In this document: positions 55,532 through 61,578 of the stretch, piece by piece | How the letters are laid out: every line of letters starts with the position of its first letter | Position numbering within the stretch: the first letter of the stretch is position 1 | Assembly: GCA_963666275.2 (NCBI GenBank) | Contig: CAXXOA010000002.1 | Location: 480,001 to 544,000, forward strand | DNA from: Oceanispirochaeta sp. | GTDB lineage: Bacteria > Spirochaetota > Spirochaetia > DSM-2461 | Direction of reading: 5' to 3' | DNA length: 64,000 nucleotides | Notes under the pieces: model-generated | Seen by the model: the letters and a program-made list of their open reading frames with translations, nothing else | The model's database searches: none | What the model was told of the DNA's origin: nothing | Translations under genes and position numbers: made by a program

Positions 55532-57049
55532 CTACTTCAGGGAATAAACTGTAAGATCAGAGAAACGGGTCCCCAATATCGCTGTGGAACCATCAGAAGA
55601 GAGTTCTGCCAAAGACGGTTCGAAGTTCATTTCTCCTGTCAGCGGGATCTTTGCCTTTTGGGTCCAGTTTGAGCTGCTTCCTGTGTAGATATAAGCCAGA
55701 TCTTCTTTATTTGAGCCCACAATAGCGGTAGAACCATCTGAAGAGAGGCTGACCGAGAGGCCGTAGCCCTTTGCCGTCTCTGGGAGTTTTACAGTCTCGG
55801 TACAGTCTGACCATGAGGAGGGGGAGTAAAGATAGGCTCCGCCGTTCCTGGACGCCGTACTGTCGCCTTTTCCGACAAGAGCCGTAGATCCGTCCGCAGA
55901 AAGGCTGACAGAGTAACCGAATCCGTCAAAGGGCGAACCATCAGAGGCCGTGAGTTTTGCTGTTTCTGTACAGTCTGTCCAGAGAGAGGAGGTAAATATA
56001 TAGGCTTTCCCCCGTCCGTCTTCGAGATGTCCCGTTCCGATTAAAGCTGTCTGCCCATCGGCAGACAGGCTGACAGAAAACCCCAAGCCATCATCTGGTG
56101 CCCTATCAAAAGCTGTCAATTCTGCGGTTTCCGTGCAGTCTGACCAGGAGGAGGACTGGAAAATATAAGCCGCTCCTCTATTACTGTTAATAGATAGGGC
56201 CCCGACAAGAGCGGTTTTTCCATCCCCGGAAAGACTGACCGCGCAGCCCAGTTCTGCATCCGTTTCCCGGTCAGTGGTTGTCAGCTTTGCCGCCTGAACC
56301 CAGGTGGCGCCTGATCTTGTAAAAATATAGGCCGCGCCCGCCCTATCGACGTCATAGGTCTCATTGATAGAATCATCACCCATAGCTCCGATCAGAGCTG
56401 TATTTCCGTCTGCCGAAATACTCACTGAACATCCGAATCTATCCTTTGTAAACCCATCAGAGGGTAGCAGTTTTGCATTCTGTTCCCAGCCCGTGGAGGT
56501 TTTCGTATAGATATACGCTGCCCCGGCGTAAGAGCCGTTTCCACTGTCTCTGCTGTCTCCGATTAAAGCCGTTGTGCCGTCAGCAGAGAGACTGATTGAA
56601 TCACCGGAAACTGAAAGGTCCTCTCTGTAATGGATGGAAACAGATACCGAATCAGAATCGGTTGTTTTGCCGTCATTCACACTGAGAGTAAATGTGTAAT
56701 CTCCTTCCGCCAGATCTGGAGTGATTGTAAAGCTGGCAGCCCTAGTGTTGCTGTCGGTCAGATCTACTGATGTGGGATTTGCGGCAGAAGGTTCCCAGGT
56801 ATATGTTGCCGAAGTATCTTCATCACTGATGGAACCGGAAAGAGTTATTGTCTGCCCCAGAGCTGTCCCGATCTGATTTTCACCGGCAGAACAGGTTAGG
56901 GTCGTTTCTTCATCTGATTTTTCCAGATCCGAGAGAAGCTCTCCCATGGGGCTTCCGCATCCGGCTGATAGGATCAGGATGATGCCGGAGAAAAAAGTTA
57001 AAGCCGCGAATTTACTTAAAGTCCATGATGAGTATCTATATGAGTTCAT
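55532..57049 (-). CDS. Lipoprotein with Ig/PKD-like domain and FG-GAP-like beta-propeller repeats
   Basis: Lipobox LSAGC; AGENQ..TITLSGS..Y.W..FTLSVNDG; repeats (F/L)G.SVSLS.DG.TAL.G...GAAYIF. Confidence 0.85.
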   Translation of the reverse strand: MNSYRYSSWTLSKFAALTFFSGIILILSAGCGSPMGELLSDLEKSDEETTLTCSAGENQIGTALGQTITLSGSISDEDTSATYTWEPSAANPTSVDLTDSNTRAASFTITPDLAEGDYTFTLSVNDGKTTDSDSVSVSIHYREDLSVSGDSISLSADGTTALIGDSRDSGNGSYAGAAYIYTKTSTGWEQNAKLLPSDGFTKDRFGCSVSISADGNTALIGAMGDDSINETYDVDRAGAAYIFTRSGATWVQAAKLTTTDRETDAELGCAVSLSGDGKTALVGALSINSNRGAAYIFQSSSWSDCTETAELTAFDRAPDDGLGFSVSLSADGQTALIGTGHLEDGRGKAYIFTSSLWTDCTETAKLTASDGSPFDGFGYSVSLSADGSTALVGKGDSTASRNGGAYLYSPSSWSDCTETVKLPETAKGYGLSVSLSSDGSTAIVGSNKEDLAYIYTGSSSNWTQKAKIPLTGEMNFEPSLAELSSDGSTAILGTRFSDLTVYSLK

Positions 57050-57053
57050 TGTA

Positions 57054-57626
57054 TCAATCCTTTGTCTGGTTATTCAGAGAGACCAGTTGGTATTTCACAC
57101 CGAGAGAGAGGGTCGGGCACTGATAGCTGTCATCCGATTCAAAGAGAAAAATGTAACCGGGAGTGCAGGATAGACTGAACTTCCCGCTTAATTGAAAGTC
57201 CAGGGAGCAGCCGGCACTCAATACGCCCTGAAGGCCTTCGCTCCGGCCGGATTCGGAGTTATTAATCCAAAGGTAGCTGATACCCCCTCCCAGGAAGGGA
57301 ATAAGGGCAAATCGTTCAGTAACAGGCAAGCGCCACCCCGCTTCTATCAGCGGCATGAACATTGTCATGCTTTTAAGCTGATCTTCTTCCGGAATAAATG
57401 TAAAAAAACCGACTGTAAATCCCAGTCCCAGACCTGTTCCGGCAATTCCGGAGTATTCACATCCTATATTTCCTCCCAGACCCAGGGGAGCGACATCGGC
57501 AAAATCTCCGGTCATAAAGAGACCCGCCGTTTCGGCTGTGATATTTACCTCCTCTGCTGAAAGGGCAGAGAAAAAAATGAGCCATATTAAAGGGGCTGCA
57601 ATAAGAAGCTTGTTCAGGTTTATCAA
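57054..57626 (-). CDS. Probable small outer-membrane beta-barrel protein
   Basis: SD GGAGGA + TTG start, signal peptide, PFLGGG.SY, LSLGVKYQ. Confidence 0.7.
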   Translation of the reverse strand: MINLNKLLIAAPLIWLIFFSALSAEEVNITAETAGLFMTGDFADVAPLGLGGNIGCEYSGIAGTGLGLGFTVGFFTFIPEEDQLKSMTMFMPLIEAGWRLPVTERFALIPFLGGGISYLWINNSESGRSEGLQGVLSAGCSLDFQLSGKFSLSCTPGYIFLFESDDSYQCPTLSLGVKYQLVSLNNQTKD

Positions 57627-57841
57627 AGATCTGGTCCTCCGGATGATGAAATCAATAGTTTATAAATGAACAATACATTATTTTCAAAAGTGTGCATACA
57701 CTTCTTATTGGTGGAGGCTCTAAAATCTTAATATGCCGTTTGTGGATGTTTATTTAAATCTGATCTCGTTCTAACACAAATCAGTCAGCAAGCTATGTTG
57801 AAACCGGGAAAATCAAATGATCCCTCTGATCTCTCTCTTTC

Positions 57842-57870
57842 TTGACAGGAAATCCCCAAGTGGCTAAAAT
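57842..57870 (+). promoter_or_regulatory. sigma70 promoter of pheST leader
   Basis: TTGACA(57842-57847)-17-TAAAAT(57865-57870). Confidence 0.8.
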
Positions 57871-57880
57871 ATTTCACAAT

Positions 57881-57967
57881 ATGAAAAAGCCCGTATTCTT
57901 TTTTTACTTTTTTAATTTCTTTTTCTTTTTCAGCTTTACCGACAGGAAGAAGCCCGGGCTTGGTTAA
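57881..57967 (+). CDS. Phe-rich attenuator leader peptide (PheM-analogous), 28 aa MKKPVFFFYFFNFFFFFSFTDRKKPGLG
   Basis: Manual translation; 11 Phe among 14 consecutive codons; lies between the promoter and the terminator upstream of pheS. Confidence 0.85.
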   Translation: MKKPVFFFYFFNFFFFFSFTDRKKPGLG

Positions 57968-57980
57968 GGAACGGTAGTTC

Positions 57981-58036
57981 AAGAGAGCCGCAGAGAGTTT
58001 CTTCAGACGAACGAAACTTACTGCGGCTCTTTTTTT
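57981..58036 (+). terminator. Attenuator terminator upstream of pheS
   Basis: AGAGCCGCAG..AGTTTC.TTC-AGAC-GAA.GAAACT..CTGCGGCTCT followed by a T-run. Confidence 0.85.
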
Positions 58037-58106
58037 GCCATATAAAAAATCCAAAAGCCGGTTAGCCCTCAACGGAAGGGACCCGGTAAAATATGAGAGG
58101 TCCGGA

Positions 58107-59150
58107 ATGGAACAAAATCTGGAAGATCTTAAGAAGGAGTTTGCCCAGGCCATTGAATCGGTCACTGACCGGTCTGCCCTGGTAAACCTGAAAGCCGATT
58201 ACCTTGGAAAAAAGGGAAAGCTCAATGCTATCCTCAAATCACTGAAGGATGCCTCCCCTGAGGTTAAAAAATCCCTTGGTATGAAGTCCAATCAGCTGAA
58301 GGAAGAGATCCTGGCGGAAGTGGATCAGAAAATGACTCAGCTGGAAACAGCGGAGATCAATGAAAAACTACTGAAAAACTGGCAGGACGTTTCTTTCAGG
58401 AATTCAATCCGTGATCAGGGGCTCAATGCCGCAGGGTTTCACCCGGTCTCTCTCATACAGAGAGAACTGGAGGAAATCTTCCAGTCTATGGGTTTCTCTA
58501 TTCTGGACGGCCCCCATATCGAAAATGAATACTATAACTTTGAAGCTCTTAACATACCGGCGAGTCATCCCGCCAGGGACATGCAGGATACCTTCTGGTT
58601 TACCGATAAAAAACATCTTCTCCGGACCCATACTTCCAACATGCAGATCCGGGGTATGGAGATGCACAAGCCTCCCTTTAAATTCGTAGGGGCCGGTAAG
58701 GTTTTCCGCTGTGAGACCCTGGATGCCAGCCACGAGGCAGCGTTCCATCAGATGGAGGGAATGATGGTGGGAAAGGATATTTCCGTTTCCCATATGATTC
58801 ACTTCCTGAGAACCCTTCTGTCGGAGATCTTCAAAAAAGAGATCAATGTCAGACTCCGTCCCGGATTCTTCCCCTTTGTAGAGCCCGGATTCGAGCTGGA
58901 CTACGAATGTTTGCTCTGCGGCGGTAAAGGCTGCAGCGTCTGTAAACAGGTAGGATGGGTCGAAGCTCTGGGTTGCGGAATGGTCCATCCCAATGTGCTG
59001 GAAGCCGGCGGGATTGATCCCAAAGAGTGGAACGGCTTCGCCTTCGGTATCGGTGTGGACCGTCTGACCATGATGCGCTATCACATTGACGATGTAAGGT
59101 ATCTCCATAGCGGGGATCTGCGGTTTTCAGAACAGTTCAAGGCCTACTAG
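58107..59150 (+). CDS. pheS: Phenylalanine--tRNA ligase alpha subunit (bacterial type)
   Basis: HPARDMQDTF, LRTHTS, FHQMEG, FFPFVEP, GCGMVHP, FAFGIGVDR; SD GAGG before ATG 58107. Confidence 0.97.
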   Translation: MEQNLEDLKKEFAQAIESVTDRSALVNLKADYLGKKGKLNAILKSLKDASPEVKKSLGMKSNQLKEEILAEVDQKMTQLETAEINEKLLKNWQDVSFRNSIRDQGLNAAGFHPVSLIQRELEEIFQSMGFSILDGPHIENEYYNFEALNIPASHPARDMQDTFWFTDKKHLLRTHTSNMQIRGMEMHKPPFKFVGAGKVFRCETLDASHEAAFHQMEGMMVGKDISVSHMIHFLRTLLSEIFKKEINVRLRPGFFPFVEPGFELDYECLLCGGKGCSVCKQVGWVEALGCGMVHPNVLEAGGIDPKEWNGFAFGIGVDRLTMMRYHIDDVRYLHSGDLRFSEQFKAY

Positions 59151-59160
59151 GAAGGGAAAT

Positions 59161-61578
59161 ATGAAGATAAGCTTAGATTGGATTAAAGAATTCACCGATA
59201 TACCATCAGATATAACAGCCCAGGAACTGGGTATGAAATTCACTCTTTCCACCTGTGAGGTTGAGGGAGTGGAAGCGACCAACGAGCATATGGATGCCGT
59301 AACGGTTGCTCAGATCACAGCTATTGAGCCCCATCCCGATGCGGATAAGCTGAACCTTGTCTCTTTTAAGACGGCAGAGGGTGAAAAAAAGGTTGTCTGC
59401 GGCGCTCCCAATGTGGCAGTGGGACTGAAAGTTCCTTTTGCTCCCATAGGAACCACCCTGCCCGGCGGATTCACCCTGGAACCCAAGAAGATCCGGGGTA
59501 TTCTCAGCGAAGGTATGCTCTGTGCTGAAGATGAACTGGGACTGGGAGATGGTCATGAGGGACTTCTCGTCCTTCCCGAGGATGCAGTTATAGGTACAAC
59601 CATGAGTGAACTGATGGGACTGAAAAAGGATGTCCTTCTGGATATCGATAATAAGTCCATTACCCACAGACCCGACCTCTGGGGCCACTACGGTATGGCC
59701 AGAGAGTTTGCCGCGGTTTTTAAAAATCCCCTGAAGAAGCCTTTCAGTGACGAGTGGATGGCAAAAATGCGGGGATATTTCACTTCCGATGCTTCTCCGG
59801 TTACCATCTCGGTTGAAGAGGGCTCTGCCTGTCTGGGATACCTGGGACTGAGCGTCGACAATGTTACTGTCAAGCCGAGCCCCTCCTGGATGCAGCAGCG
59901 TCTGATCGCCTGCGGCCTGCGGCCCATTAATAATATTGTTGATATTTCCAACTATGTGATGCTGGAACTGGGGCAGCCCAACCACCTTTTTGACCGGGAT
60001 ACGATCCGGGGAGGCAGGATCATTGTCAAAGAGATGGGAGAGGAAATCACCTTTACCACTCTGGATGAGATGGAACGAAAGATCCTTCCCGGTGATACCA
60101 TGGTCTGTGATACCGAAGGCCCTTCGGTCATCGGCGGTATTATGGGCGGACTCACAAGCAGTGTGAAAGAGGATACCAGCAGAATCTTCATCGAAGCGGC
60201 GAACTGGATCGATGCCAGGATCCGCCATACATCCACCAGGCTGGGACTGAGAACAGATTCCAGTCAGAGGTATGAGAAATCCCTGGATACCAATCAGCTT
60301 GAAAAAGCAGTTCTCAGGATCCTGGAACTGGTCCTGGAAAGCTGTCCCGAAGCGAAAGTGGTGGGAAAAATTGAATCGGACGGGATTATTCCCACTCCGG
60401 AACTTAAAATCTCTCTGGATTCTGCAAGGGTAAACTCCATTCTGGGGACAAGCCTGAGTGCGGCGGAAATCACAGAGAATCTGGAAGCTCTGGATTTTAT
60501 TGTGGAACCTGCGGGGGATCTGCTGATGGTCACTGTTCCCAGTTTCCGTGCCACCAAGGATGTGGAAGTGGATGCGGACCTCATCGAAGAGGTGGGAAGA
60601 GTCTACGGTTACGACAAACTTGTTCCCCAGGCTCCGCTCAGTGCCGTTTCTGCTGTGAATCTGACTCCGGCTAAAAAAATTCAGAGAAAGGTTCTGGACT
60701 ATATGGTGTACAGAGGACAGGCTCTGGAAGTCTATACCTATCCCATGGTGGGAGAGAAACTTCTGGATCAGGCTATGTGGCCTGTCAGAAATGAGAGCCT
60801 CAAACTGGTGAATGCCATCAGCCCCGAGCATGACAGGATGCGTCCTTCCATGATTCCCAGTCTTATCCAGTCCGCCTCTCTGAACCAGAAAAACTGGAAC
60901 AGTTTCAGAATGTTTGAACTGGGACGCTCCTACAGGGAAGATGAAAAAGAGTTCTCCCGGGAACTCTATCAGCTGGGTGCGGTTTTTTATGACAGAAAAG
61001 GGTCTCCCTTTCTGGATGCGGCTAATGTGATGGAAGGACTTCTCAATTCTCTGAACCTGCCTTTCCGTATCAGCGCATCCTATAACCCGGCCAATTCTCT
61101 GCTTCCTGAAAACTGGGCCGGTCTGCACCCCACGGACTTCCTGGACATTCAGGTAATGGGCAGAAGCTGCGGATTTGTTTCAACCATTCATCCCCTGGTG
61201 TGCCGGAACTTTAAAATCAAGGGGAATCTTGTCATGGCTGTTCTGGACCTCACATCCTTTCAGGATAAGGAGATGAAGGATAAAGCCAAATACAAACCTC
61301 TTTCCCGTTTTCCCTCTTCCACCTTTGACTGTACCGTTGTGGCTGATACCAGAACTCCGGTTGAGGATATTGTCAAAGCTCTGGGCCGCCTGAAAATGAA
61401 GGAACTGGACTGGGTTAAAATAGCCGATGTTTTCACTCTCAGCGAAGAGCAGAAAAGCGTGACTGTAAGAACATCATTTTCCGATCCTGAAAAAACCCTT
61501 TCCGGAGATTTTATTCGTCAGGCGGAAGACAAGGTCGTCTCTACCCTCAGAGATGCGGGATTCCCCCTGAAAATGTAG
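59161..61578 (+). CDS. pheT: Phenylalanine--tRNA ligase beta subunit (bacterial type, 805 aa)
   Basis: HPDADKL, VVCGAPN, SEGMLC, THRPD, NNIVDISNYVMLE.GQP, DLIEEVGR, C-terminal anticodon-binding domain. Confidence 0.97.
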   Translation: MKISLDWIKEFTDIPSDITAQELGMKFTLSTCEVEGVEATNEHMDAVTVAQITAIEPHPDADKLNLVSFKTAEGEKKVVCGAPNVAVGLKVPFAPIGTTLPGGFTLEPKKIRGILSEGMLCAEDELGLGDGHEGLLVLPEDAVIGTTMSELMGLKKDVLLDIDNKSITHRPDLWGHYGMAREFAAVFKNPLKKPFSDEWMAKMRGYFTSDASPVTISVEEGSACLGYLGLSVDNVTVKPSPSWMQQRLIACGLRPINNIVDISNYVMLELGQPNHLFDRDTIRGGRIIVKEMGEEITFTTLDEMERKILPGDTMVCDTEGPSVIGGIMGGLTSSVKEDTSRIFIEAANWIDARIRHTSTRLGLRTDSSQRYEKSLDTNQLEKAVLRILELVLESCPEAKVVGKIESDGIIPTPELKISLDSARVNSILGTSLSAAEITENLEALDFIVEPAGDLLMVTVPSFRATKDVEVDADLIEEVGRVYGYDKLVPQAPLSAVSAVNLTPAKKIQRKVLDYMVYRGQALEVYTYPMVGEKLLDQAMWPVRNESLKLVNAISPEHDRMRPSMIPSLIQSASLNQKNWNSFRMFELGRSYREDEKEFSRELYQLGAVFYDRKGSPFLDAANVMEGLLNSLNLPFRISASYNPANSLLPENWAGLHPTDFLDIQVMGRSCGFVSTIHPLVCRNFKIKGNLVMAVLDLTSFQDKEMKDKAKYKPLSRFPSSTFDCTVVADTRTPVEDIVKALGRLKMKELDWVKIADVFTLSEEQKSVTVRTSFSDPEKTLSGDFIRQAEDKVVSTLRDAGFPLKM

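Follow-up and report, generated by a model that had tools for sequence, protein, structure and literature searches.

Among the described systems closest to the locus considered here, the attenuation mechanism of Escherichia coli pheM belongs to the classical literature. In the available text of a paper that covers such systems, attenuation of pheST is named for gamma-proteobacteria and T-boxes for Firmicutes (PMC1262725), and another source lists pheM, in the part available, among the genes without transposon insertions (PMC5821084). In Deinococcus deserti, 14 leaderless leader peptides have been put forward as attenuators of amino-acid and tRNA synthetase genes (PMC4007540, available part), and the supplement of that work gives 1450 in the first read column for the leader peptide Deide_20901 versus 69 for pheS (PMC4007540 supplement, available part). 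As for spirochaetes, the available text of one study mentions Spirochaetales only for leader-gene distances (PMC4833913), the main text of another, which includes shikimate genes with Phe/Tyr uORFs, nowhere contains "spiroch-" (PMC6429828), and the main text of a third mentions neither "spiroch-" nor pheS (PMC2965389). No paper describing pheST attenuation in a spirochaete turned up in a literature search, mostly outside subscription papers.

We analyzed a 64,000-nt stretch of Oceanispirochaeta sp. (contig CAXXOA010000002.1, forward-strand positions 480,001-544,000; hereafter the window, to which all positions refer unless a contig is named) that carries a Phe-rich leader ORF in front of pheST. 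We propose, at a probability of about 0.88 and on the strength of sequence comparison, that this conserved leader and the predicted terminator following it constitute a transcription attenuator of the pheM type, operated by ribosome stalling on an mRNA whose 5' leader is approximately 3 nt, which would likely raise the output of phenylalanyl-tRNA synthetase (PheRS) when charged tRNA-Phe is short. One point in favor of this reading is that the Phe codons precede the PheRS genes, i.e., the amino acid and the regulated genes are cognate.

The leader locus and its distribution in Spirochaetia

The following features frame the leader:

57054-57626, minus strand: divergent ORF of 190 aa upstream of the leader, its N terminus signal-like; no Pfam match
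57842-57870, plus strand: sigma-70-type promoter TTGACA-17-TAAAAT (TTGACA 57842-57847, TAAAAT 57865-57870), read directly from the sequence
57878-57880, plus strand: predicted transcription start A57878 (+/-2) and approximately 3-nt 5' leader without a Shine-Dalgarno (SD) sequence
57881-57967, plus strand: leader ORF of 28 codons with 11 Phe in codons 6-19 (57896-57937), from direct reading and frame conservation in relatives
58095-59150, plus strand: SD sequence GAGAGG (58095-58100) and pheS, bacterial-type alpha subunit of 347 aa from the ATG at 58107 (TIGR00468, 291 bits, above the NCBIfam cut-off of 237)
59161-61578, plus strand: pheT, bacterial-type beta subunit of 805 aa (TIGR00472, 644 bits, above the NCBIfam cut-off of 403)

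The promoter matches the consensus at 11/12 positions and is the sole promoter-like site in 57000-58600, a scan of shuffled sequence giving a mean of 2.0 sites at the scan's looser threshold. The leader ATG (57881) lies 10 nt past the -10 box and has no SD sequence, and the ORF, whose stop codon occupies 57965-57967, is an outlier in composition: a density of 11 Phe in 14 codons occurs once among the 50,531 short ATG ORFs of the genome, the next two ORFs having 8. The sequence-only reading of this DNA had described the promoter, the ATG 10 nt later without an SD sequence, and a 28-codon ORF with 11 Phe in a run of 14 that stops at 57967, and direct reading places all of these where it had put them. 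The leader peptide has no family match in Pfam or NCBIfam. The closest named PheS comes from an Oceanispirochaeta sp. assembly (L031; 95% identity); two contigs from one sample are identical to the window over this stretch, but probably represent its source sample and hence are not independent.

By the rule that transcription starts at the first purine 6-7 nt past the -10 box, as for Spirochaeta africana promoters (bioRxiv 10.64898/2026.02.09.704077, available part), we infer that the leader transcript starts at A57878, which would give it a 3-nt 5' leader. Across the long ORFs of the same genome, the distance of the ATG behind strong -10 boxes peaks at 6-7 nt (21 and 24 cases versus 1-4 at flanking distances), and leaderless genes thus look common in this organism. 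Since the long-ORF starts peak at 6-7 nt and the leader ATGs lie at 8-12 nt, the Phe leaders would carry a very short 5' leader instead of none at all, probably of 1-6 nt.

To delineate the distribution of the leader, we took the 81 of 401 genomes of the class in which a bacterial-type PheS was matched at E <= 1e-60; for 80 of them the scan covered up to 450 nt of upstream sequence, and the 81st (G695) was inspected by eye. In the other 320 genomes, no bacterial-type PheS reached this threshold. Four features defined a strong leader: a promoter, an ATG, 14 codons with at least 5 Phe, and a terminator; a promoter-to-ATG spacing of 3-16 nt was allowed. By this rule, strong leaders are present at 40 of the 80 loci, including the window's own (39 of 79 relatives), in 13 genera and 7 families, with the caveat that the genomes include kin and samples and the counts are not independent trials. 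The remainder comprises five loci with a weaker version having 3-4 Phe (three with and two without a terminator), two cut by contig ends, and 33 with none by the rule. On inspection, a weak version typical of genus g2 is present in two of these 33 (L156, L162) and in G695. The g2 variant as a whole (L028, L029, L156, L162-L165, L221) has 2-5 Phe behind a conserved SVYS-like motif and an ATG 6-7 nt past the -10 box where measured, with L028 and L029 having no terminator. In genus g4, of the same family, the leader is absent in 4/4.

Beyond these, no such unit was found before the long (506-537 aa) PheS in 10/10 class members checked, a type that in Spirochaeta, Treponema, and Borrelia has been described as archaeal in origin (PMC3191353, available part). 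It was likewise absent from 25 loci of other classes of the phylum, where one locus (L122) has a GTG ORF with 6 Phe in a layout that does not match, and from 29 native Desulfobulbales loci. The Bacteriovoracaceae and other non-spirochaete loci examined also lack the unit, the exceptions being Desulfopila and Desulfogranum (see below); one of these loci (L057) has a TTG ORF with 7 Phe but no promoter-terminator layout. The closest non-spirochaete PheS proteins (63-68% identity; L058-L110) are mostly from Bdellovibrionota and are without a leader.

The layout of the strong leaders is uniform in all 40 cases, as the search rule itself required of promoter and terminator. The promoter lies 8-12 nt (mode 10) before the leader ATG, a predicted U-tailed terminator hairpin follows the ORF, and the first ATG past the -10 box opens the Phe frame, with no ATG in another frame within 20 nt. 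An SD-like word occurs between the -10 box and the leader ATG in 2/40 and before pheS in 38/40. Conservation of a Phe-rich uORF upstream of pheS, proposed as a check in the sequence-only reading, is thereby borne out for half of the scanned loci in ORF, frame, spacing, lack of an SD sequence, and terminator. The same reading had taken displacement of the T-rich tract from the frame in relatives as evidence against its proposal; instead, within the U-richest 36 nt of each leader (picked by T count), the C of TTCT falls at codon position 3 in 77/77 cases drawn from 12 of the 13 genera. When leaders of the same genus are aligned, all gaps within the ORF are of 3 or 6 nt, i.e., multiples of three. 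Frames 0, +1, and +2 hold 325, 161, and 179 Phe codons, respectively, a bias that is partly by construction as the leaders were chosen on frame 0.

Mutually exclusive RNA structures and the proposed switch

The RNA from 57876 to 58045 folds with a z-score of -4.51, none of 200 shuffles being equally stable. The predicted elements, which partly overlap, are:

57887-57903, plus strand: segment 1, predicted protector with segment 2 (57887-57893 with 57955-57961; 57896-57903 with 57944-57951), -14.6 kcal/mol from folding
57944-57961, plus strand: segment 2, which forms the predicted antiterminator's 5' arm (outer 57946-57953, inner 57957-57961), within the last ten codons of the leader; from folding and duplex energies
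57969-57980, plus strand: small GAAC-N4-GTTC hairpin in the antiterminator loop, its stem invariant in 10/10 same-genus leaders and its loop variable
57981-58036, plus strand: predicted intrinsic terminator, with stem 57981-57993 pairing 58021-58033, an interrupted upper stem, and T7 at 58030-58036; from folding
57985-58004, plus strand: segment 3, common to the antiterminator (57985-57989, 57997-58004) and the terminator 5' arm; from folding and duplex energies

These yield three exclusive pairings over common segments, namely the protector (1:2, -14.6 kcal/mol), the antiterminator (2:3, -19.3 kcal/mol), and the terminator (3:4, -31.4 kcal/mol over 57981-58033). The strong hairpin with a T-run that the sequence-only reading had noted before pheS is recovered as this last element, and the pairings that it had pointed out, AAGCCCG with CGGGCTT, GGCTT (57957-57961) with GAGCC (57985-57989), and the GAAC-GGTA-GTTC hairpin, are all present. 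Its antiterminator stood with respect to the inner GGCTT:GAGCC helix but was too short, as an additional 8-bp outer helix joins 57946-57953 with 57997-58004. A simple terminator scan did not pick up the hairpin at 57981-58036, presumably because its long interrupted top exceeds the loop limit of the scan.

We propose the following course of events. The transcript would begin about 3 nt ahead of the AUG, and a ribosome would load without an SD sequence. With ample Phe-tRNA the ribosome would reach the stop codon and cover segment 2, leaving 57985-58004 free, and the terminator would form. With scarce Phe-tRNA it would stall in codons 6-19 and break the 1:2 protector, whereupon segment 2 would pair with the emerging segment 3. 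This pairing, above all that of GGCUU with GAGCC, would hold the base of the terminator stem until RNA polymerase passes the U run, and its action must be kinetic.

Folding models of growing transcripts are consistent with such a sequence. With a ribosome modeled in the Phe run and the transcript extended to 58010, both antiterminator helices form at this locus at 0.82-1.0; at 58024 the outer helix yields to the terminator top while the inner helix holds at 0.70-0.92; and from 58031 onward the terminator is at 1.0 regardless of the ribosome. In a model of the 40 strong leaders, in which the exposed RNA ended 14 nt short of the seventh U and the ribosome had a fixed 13-nt footprint, the median sequestration of the terminator base was 0.82 with the ribosome stalled in the Phe run versus 0.11 with it at the stop (0.82 versus 0.10 at this locus). 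Sequestration under stalling exceeded 0.5 in 38/40 leaders, and the difference between the two states exceeded 0.3 in 31/40, the remaining 9/40 showing a contrast of at most 0.3 under the fixed footprint. Full-leader folding at equilibrium does not reveal the switch: the terminator wins in 33/40 leaders, including this one, and the antiterminator is kept in 7/40, so that only a kinetic switch is plausible. The state without a ribosome is ambiguous, with a median of 0.68 sequestered over the 40 leaders by a measure that also counts pairing with the U tract; super-attenuation is therefore not predicted with confidence.

Duplex energies were compared with 500 base shuffles in 42 leaders (38 strong, three weak, and that of Desulfopila; four were dropped as having no terminator under the rule of this test). 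The antiterminator duplex beats the shuffles (p <= 0.05) in 28/42, and the protector duplex does so in 30/42, although the ensemble without a ribosome does not clearly free the terminator arm. For this genome the antiterminator duplex (-15.1 kcal/mol) is not significant, being matched in 45/500 shuffles. These energies, together with a repeat without shuffles, replaced an earlier antiterminator control by dinucleotide shuffles of the whole spacer, which was weak (shuffled means of 0.27-0.67 in 15/16 leaders). RNAalifold applied to leaders cut before the terminator 3' arm recovered the antiterminator in two groups. Among 12 leaders of four families, 5/12 antiterminator pairs change on both sides (10 cells versus 2.8 in shuffles; 0/500), in a test whose structure was itself derived from this alignment of related sequences; in its slid controls the paired fraction drops from 92% to 35-63%. 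Within the genus, the inner helix and the GAAC/GTTC stem are invariant in 10/10 leaders and give no covariation signal. The search for covarying stems and alternative conformers, also suggested in the sequence-only reading, thus indicates that the antiterminator can form with compensatory changes in relatives.

By eye, at least four leader architectures can be distinguished, those of this genus, of families f2/f10/f12/f26, of genera g5/g213, and of genus g3, the last being the worst fit to the attenuation model. The distances from the last Phe codon to the stop and from the stop to the terminator arm are constant within each. This constancy bears on the best surviving rival, namely that translation of the uORF sets a fixed level of read-through, or that a protein such as PheRS binds the leader, with no sensing of charged tRNA-Phe. 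The terminator is indeed far more stable than the antiterminator here, and mutating candidate regulatory codons of an ilvB leader had no effect (PMC1262725, available part). Yet, apart from the constant spacing, 5-11 Phe codons are kept in 40/40 strong leaders while the flanking residues diverge freely, and we regard this alternative as improbable. Somewhat less probable still is that the U-rich tract is an RNA polymerase pause or UTP sensor of the pyrL kind, in which ribosome-polymerase coupling would matter and codon identity would not. A Phe run is inherently a long U tract, TTT making up 247 of the 339 leader Phe codons, but the interrupting C occurs only at the wobble position, a restriction that selection for U content by itself would not impose, and the genes regulated are pheS and pheT, not nucleotide genes. 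Control of pheS translation by SD sequestration instead of transcription termination has parallels in the mycobacterial leaderless sORFs (10.1101/834739, available part) and in the terminator-less 3-Phe uORFs of the g2 loci L028 and L029, but is very improbable given that the hairpin here runs into T7 some 60 nt upstream of the pheS SD and that a U-tailed hairpin follows every strong leader. The sequence-only reading's interpretation of the locus as a ribosome-stalling Phe-tRNA sensor, by comparison, gains support from the conservation at 40/80 loci, the maintained frame, and the compensatory changes.

Probable transfer to sulfate reducers, and other short-leader units

PheS of Desulfopila sp. 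IMCC35008 (complete chromosome, L053) is 67% identical to that of the window, versus 39-44% for the other 120 of the 121 genomes of its order. Desulfopila has a single PheS match, as does Desulfogranum marinum (L047). In a careful tree of 37 of the 110 rows, the two group with spirochaete genera g5 and g213 in a clade with 100/100 support, the tree of all 110 rows being a quick one. An AU test rejects (p = 0.0015) a grouping of both with seven PheS native to Desulfobulbales; that native group is taxonomic, but was designated once the quick tree had been seen. The corresponding PheT proteins are 62-66% identical to that of the window over the available part, versus 35-38% for five native PheT. 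The Desulfopila locus (L053:1296-1490) has a 22-codon leader with 7 Phe in 14 codons and a g5-type antiterminator and terminator, its promoter failing the search rule, whereas the Desulfogranum locus (L047:190-375) has kept the promoter and terminator but no longer has the ATG, the antiterminator arm, or most of the Phe codons. The best reading of these data is that the leader and pheST came together from a spirochaete into Desulfopila, a direction that follows from the rarity of this type in the recipient order. Such a joint transfer would suggest that a switch of this kind can move between phyla with its genes.

A scan of the genome yielded three further short-leader units with terminators, pertaining to Leu, Ala, and Phe/Tyr/Trp. 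The first (C1:2533712, plus strand) is a Leu-rich ORF of 27 codons with a terminator before a gene that, from its sequence features, is presumably leuA-like. The second (C1:1244834, plus strand) is a 28-codon ORF with an Ala run, located 7 nt past a -10 box and followed by a terminator and an ORF that by the same token is presumably aminotransferase-like. The third (C2:1134972, minus strand; L220, L225) is a near-leaderless 33-codon leader with 8 Phe, 2 Tyr, and 1 Trp plus a terminator, behind which lie genes for an HMGL-like aldolase (P0003) and a lipoate-protein ligase.

The aldolase matches PF00682, falls under all NCBIfam cut-offs, and has 3DXI as its closest solved structure. Aromatic-rich leaders are present at 7 of 29 aldolase loci, of which the genome's own, L240, L227, L243, and L244 were found by script and L226 and L242 by eye; a U-tailed hairpin was read behind each of the six whose downstream stretch was inspected (all but L243). 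The L244 sequence contains undetermined bases, and the ATG close to its promoter is not in frame. In the closest relative, the aldolase homolog (G004:C8:83582-84509; L240, L241) aligns as two separate pieces, suggestive of a frameshift or an assembly error, and its aromatic leader is intact. The aromatic leader suggests a role for the aldolase in aromatic amino-acid supply. That it might stand in for a missing DAHP synthase was rejected, as the genome has two canonical DAHP synthases over the NCBIfam cut-offs; 5/5 other genomes with the aldolase have PF00793 hits. A literature search on the aldolase gave nothing relevant among the best 15 of 65 matches.

A broader scenario, which we put forward as speculative and rather unlikely to hold in its entirety, is that free-living spirochaetes run a set of near-leaderless leader attenuators (Phe/pheST, Leu/leuA, Ala/aminotransferase, Phe-Tyr-Trp/HMGL-like aldolase). 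In it, the Phe unit would be portable, having been carried across phyla to Desulfopila along with pheST and having degenerated in Desulfogranum, and the aldolase would be an unrecognized enzyme of aromatic supply, e.g., a pyruvate-using DAHP-type aldolase beside the canonical synthases.

Comparison with known systems

The locus combines the components of a classical leader-peptide attenuator, i.e., a short ORF rich in cognate codons, a predicted terminator, and a mutually exclusive antiterminator. Its best Rfam match over 57894-58036 is Phe_leader (RF01859), at 24.6 bits versus a gathering threshold of 55 (E 0.37); membership in that family was rejected on this score, and none of the five genomes searched has a hit over the cut-off. 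A T-box (RF00230) was also considered and set aside, there being no T-box match in 56500-59000. The genome's single T-box (C1:2467985-2468242, minus strand; L224) lies before a thrS-like gene, presumably encoding a threonyl-tRNA synthetase, and T-box and leader-peptide control of synthetases would thus coexist in this genome. If our reading is right, attenuation of tRNA synthetases extends to free-living Spirochaetia and involves at least four RNA architectures undetected by Rfam, and the locus offers a clean test case for how ribosomes load on a 3-nt leader fast enough to control termination.

The mycobacterial poly-Cys sORF attenuators resemble this system in having an amino-acid run in a short ORF at the transcript 5' end that stalls the ribosome, but they sense Cys and sequester a ribosome-binding site, whereas here the run is of Phe and is followed by a terminator (10.1101/834739, available part). 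Closer is Deide_20901 of D. deserti, a leader peptide before pheS whose first base is the listed pheS transcription start (-126); it differs in phylum, in its length of 60 nt, and in starting transcription at the AUG where a leader of approximately 3 nt is predicted here, and its regulation is itself a prediction (PMC4007540, available part). With respect to the near-leaderless start, then, the sequence-only reading was right about the short spacing and the lack of an SD sequence, both of which are conserved, but a leaderless pheST leader had already been annotated in Deinococcus. E. coli pheM (b1715, in the pheST-ihfA operon) is likewise a short Phe-rich ORF followed by a U-tailed hairpin before pheS-pheT. 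It has 14 codons with 5 Phe versus 28 with 11 here, sits between rplT and pheS whereas the spirochaete leader follows a divergent gene, has, by our reading, a promoter-like TTGACT-17-TTCAAT 38 nt before its ATG versus 10 nt here, and by eye shares no sequence likeness with the spirochaete leader beyond the Phe codons. The mechanism itself is thus known from pheM, and a specialist's surprise would be moderate owing to this textbook mechanism and the Deinococcus precedent.
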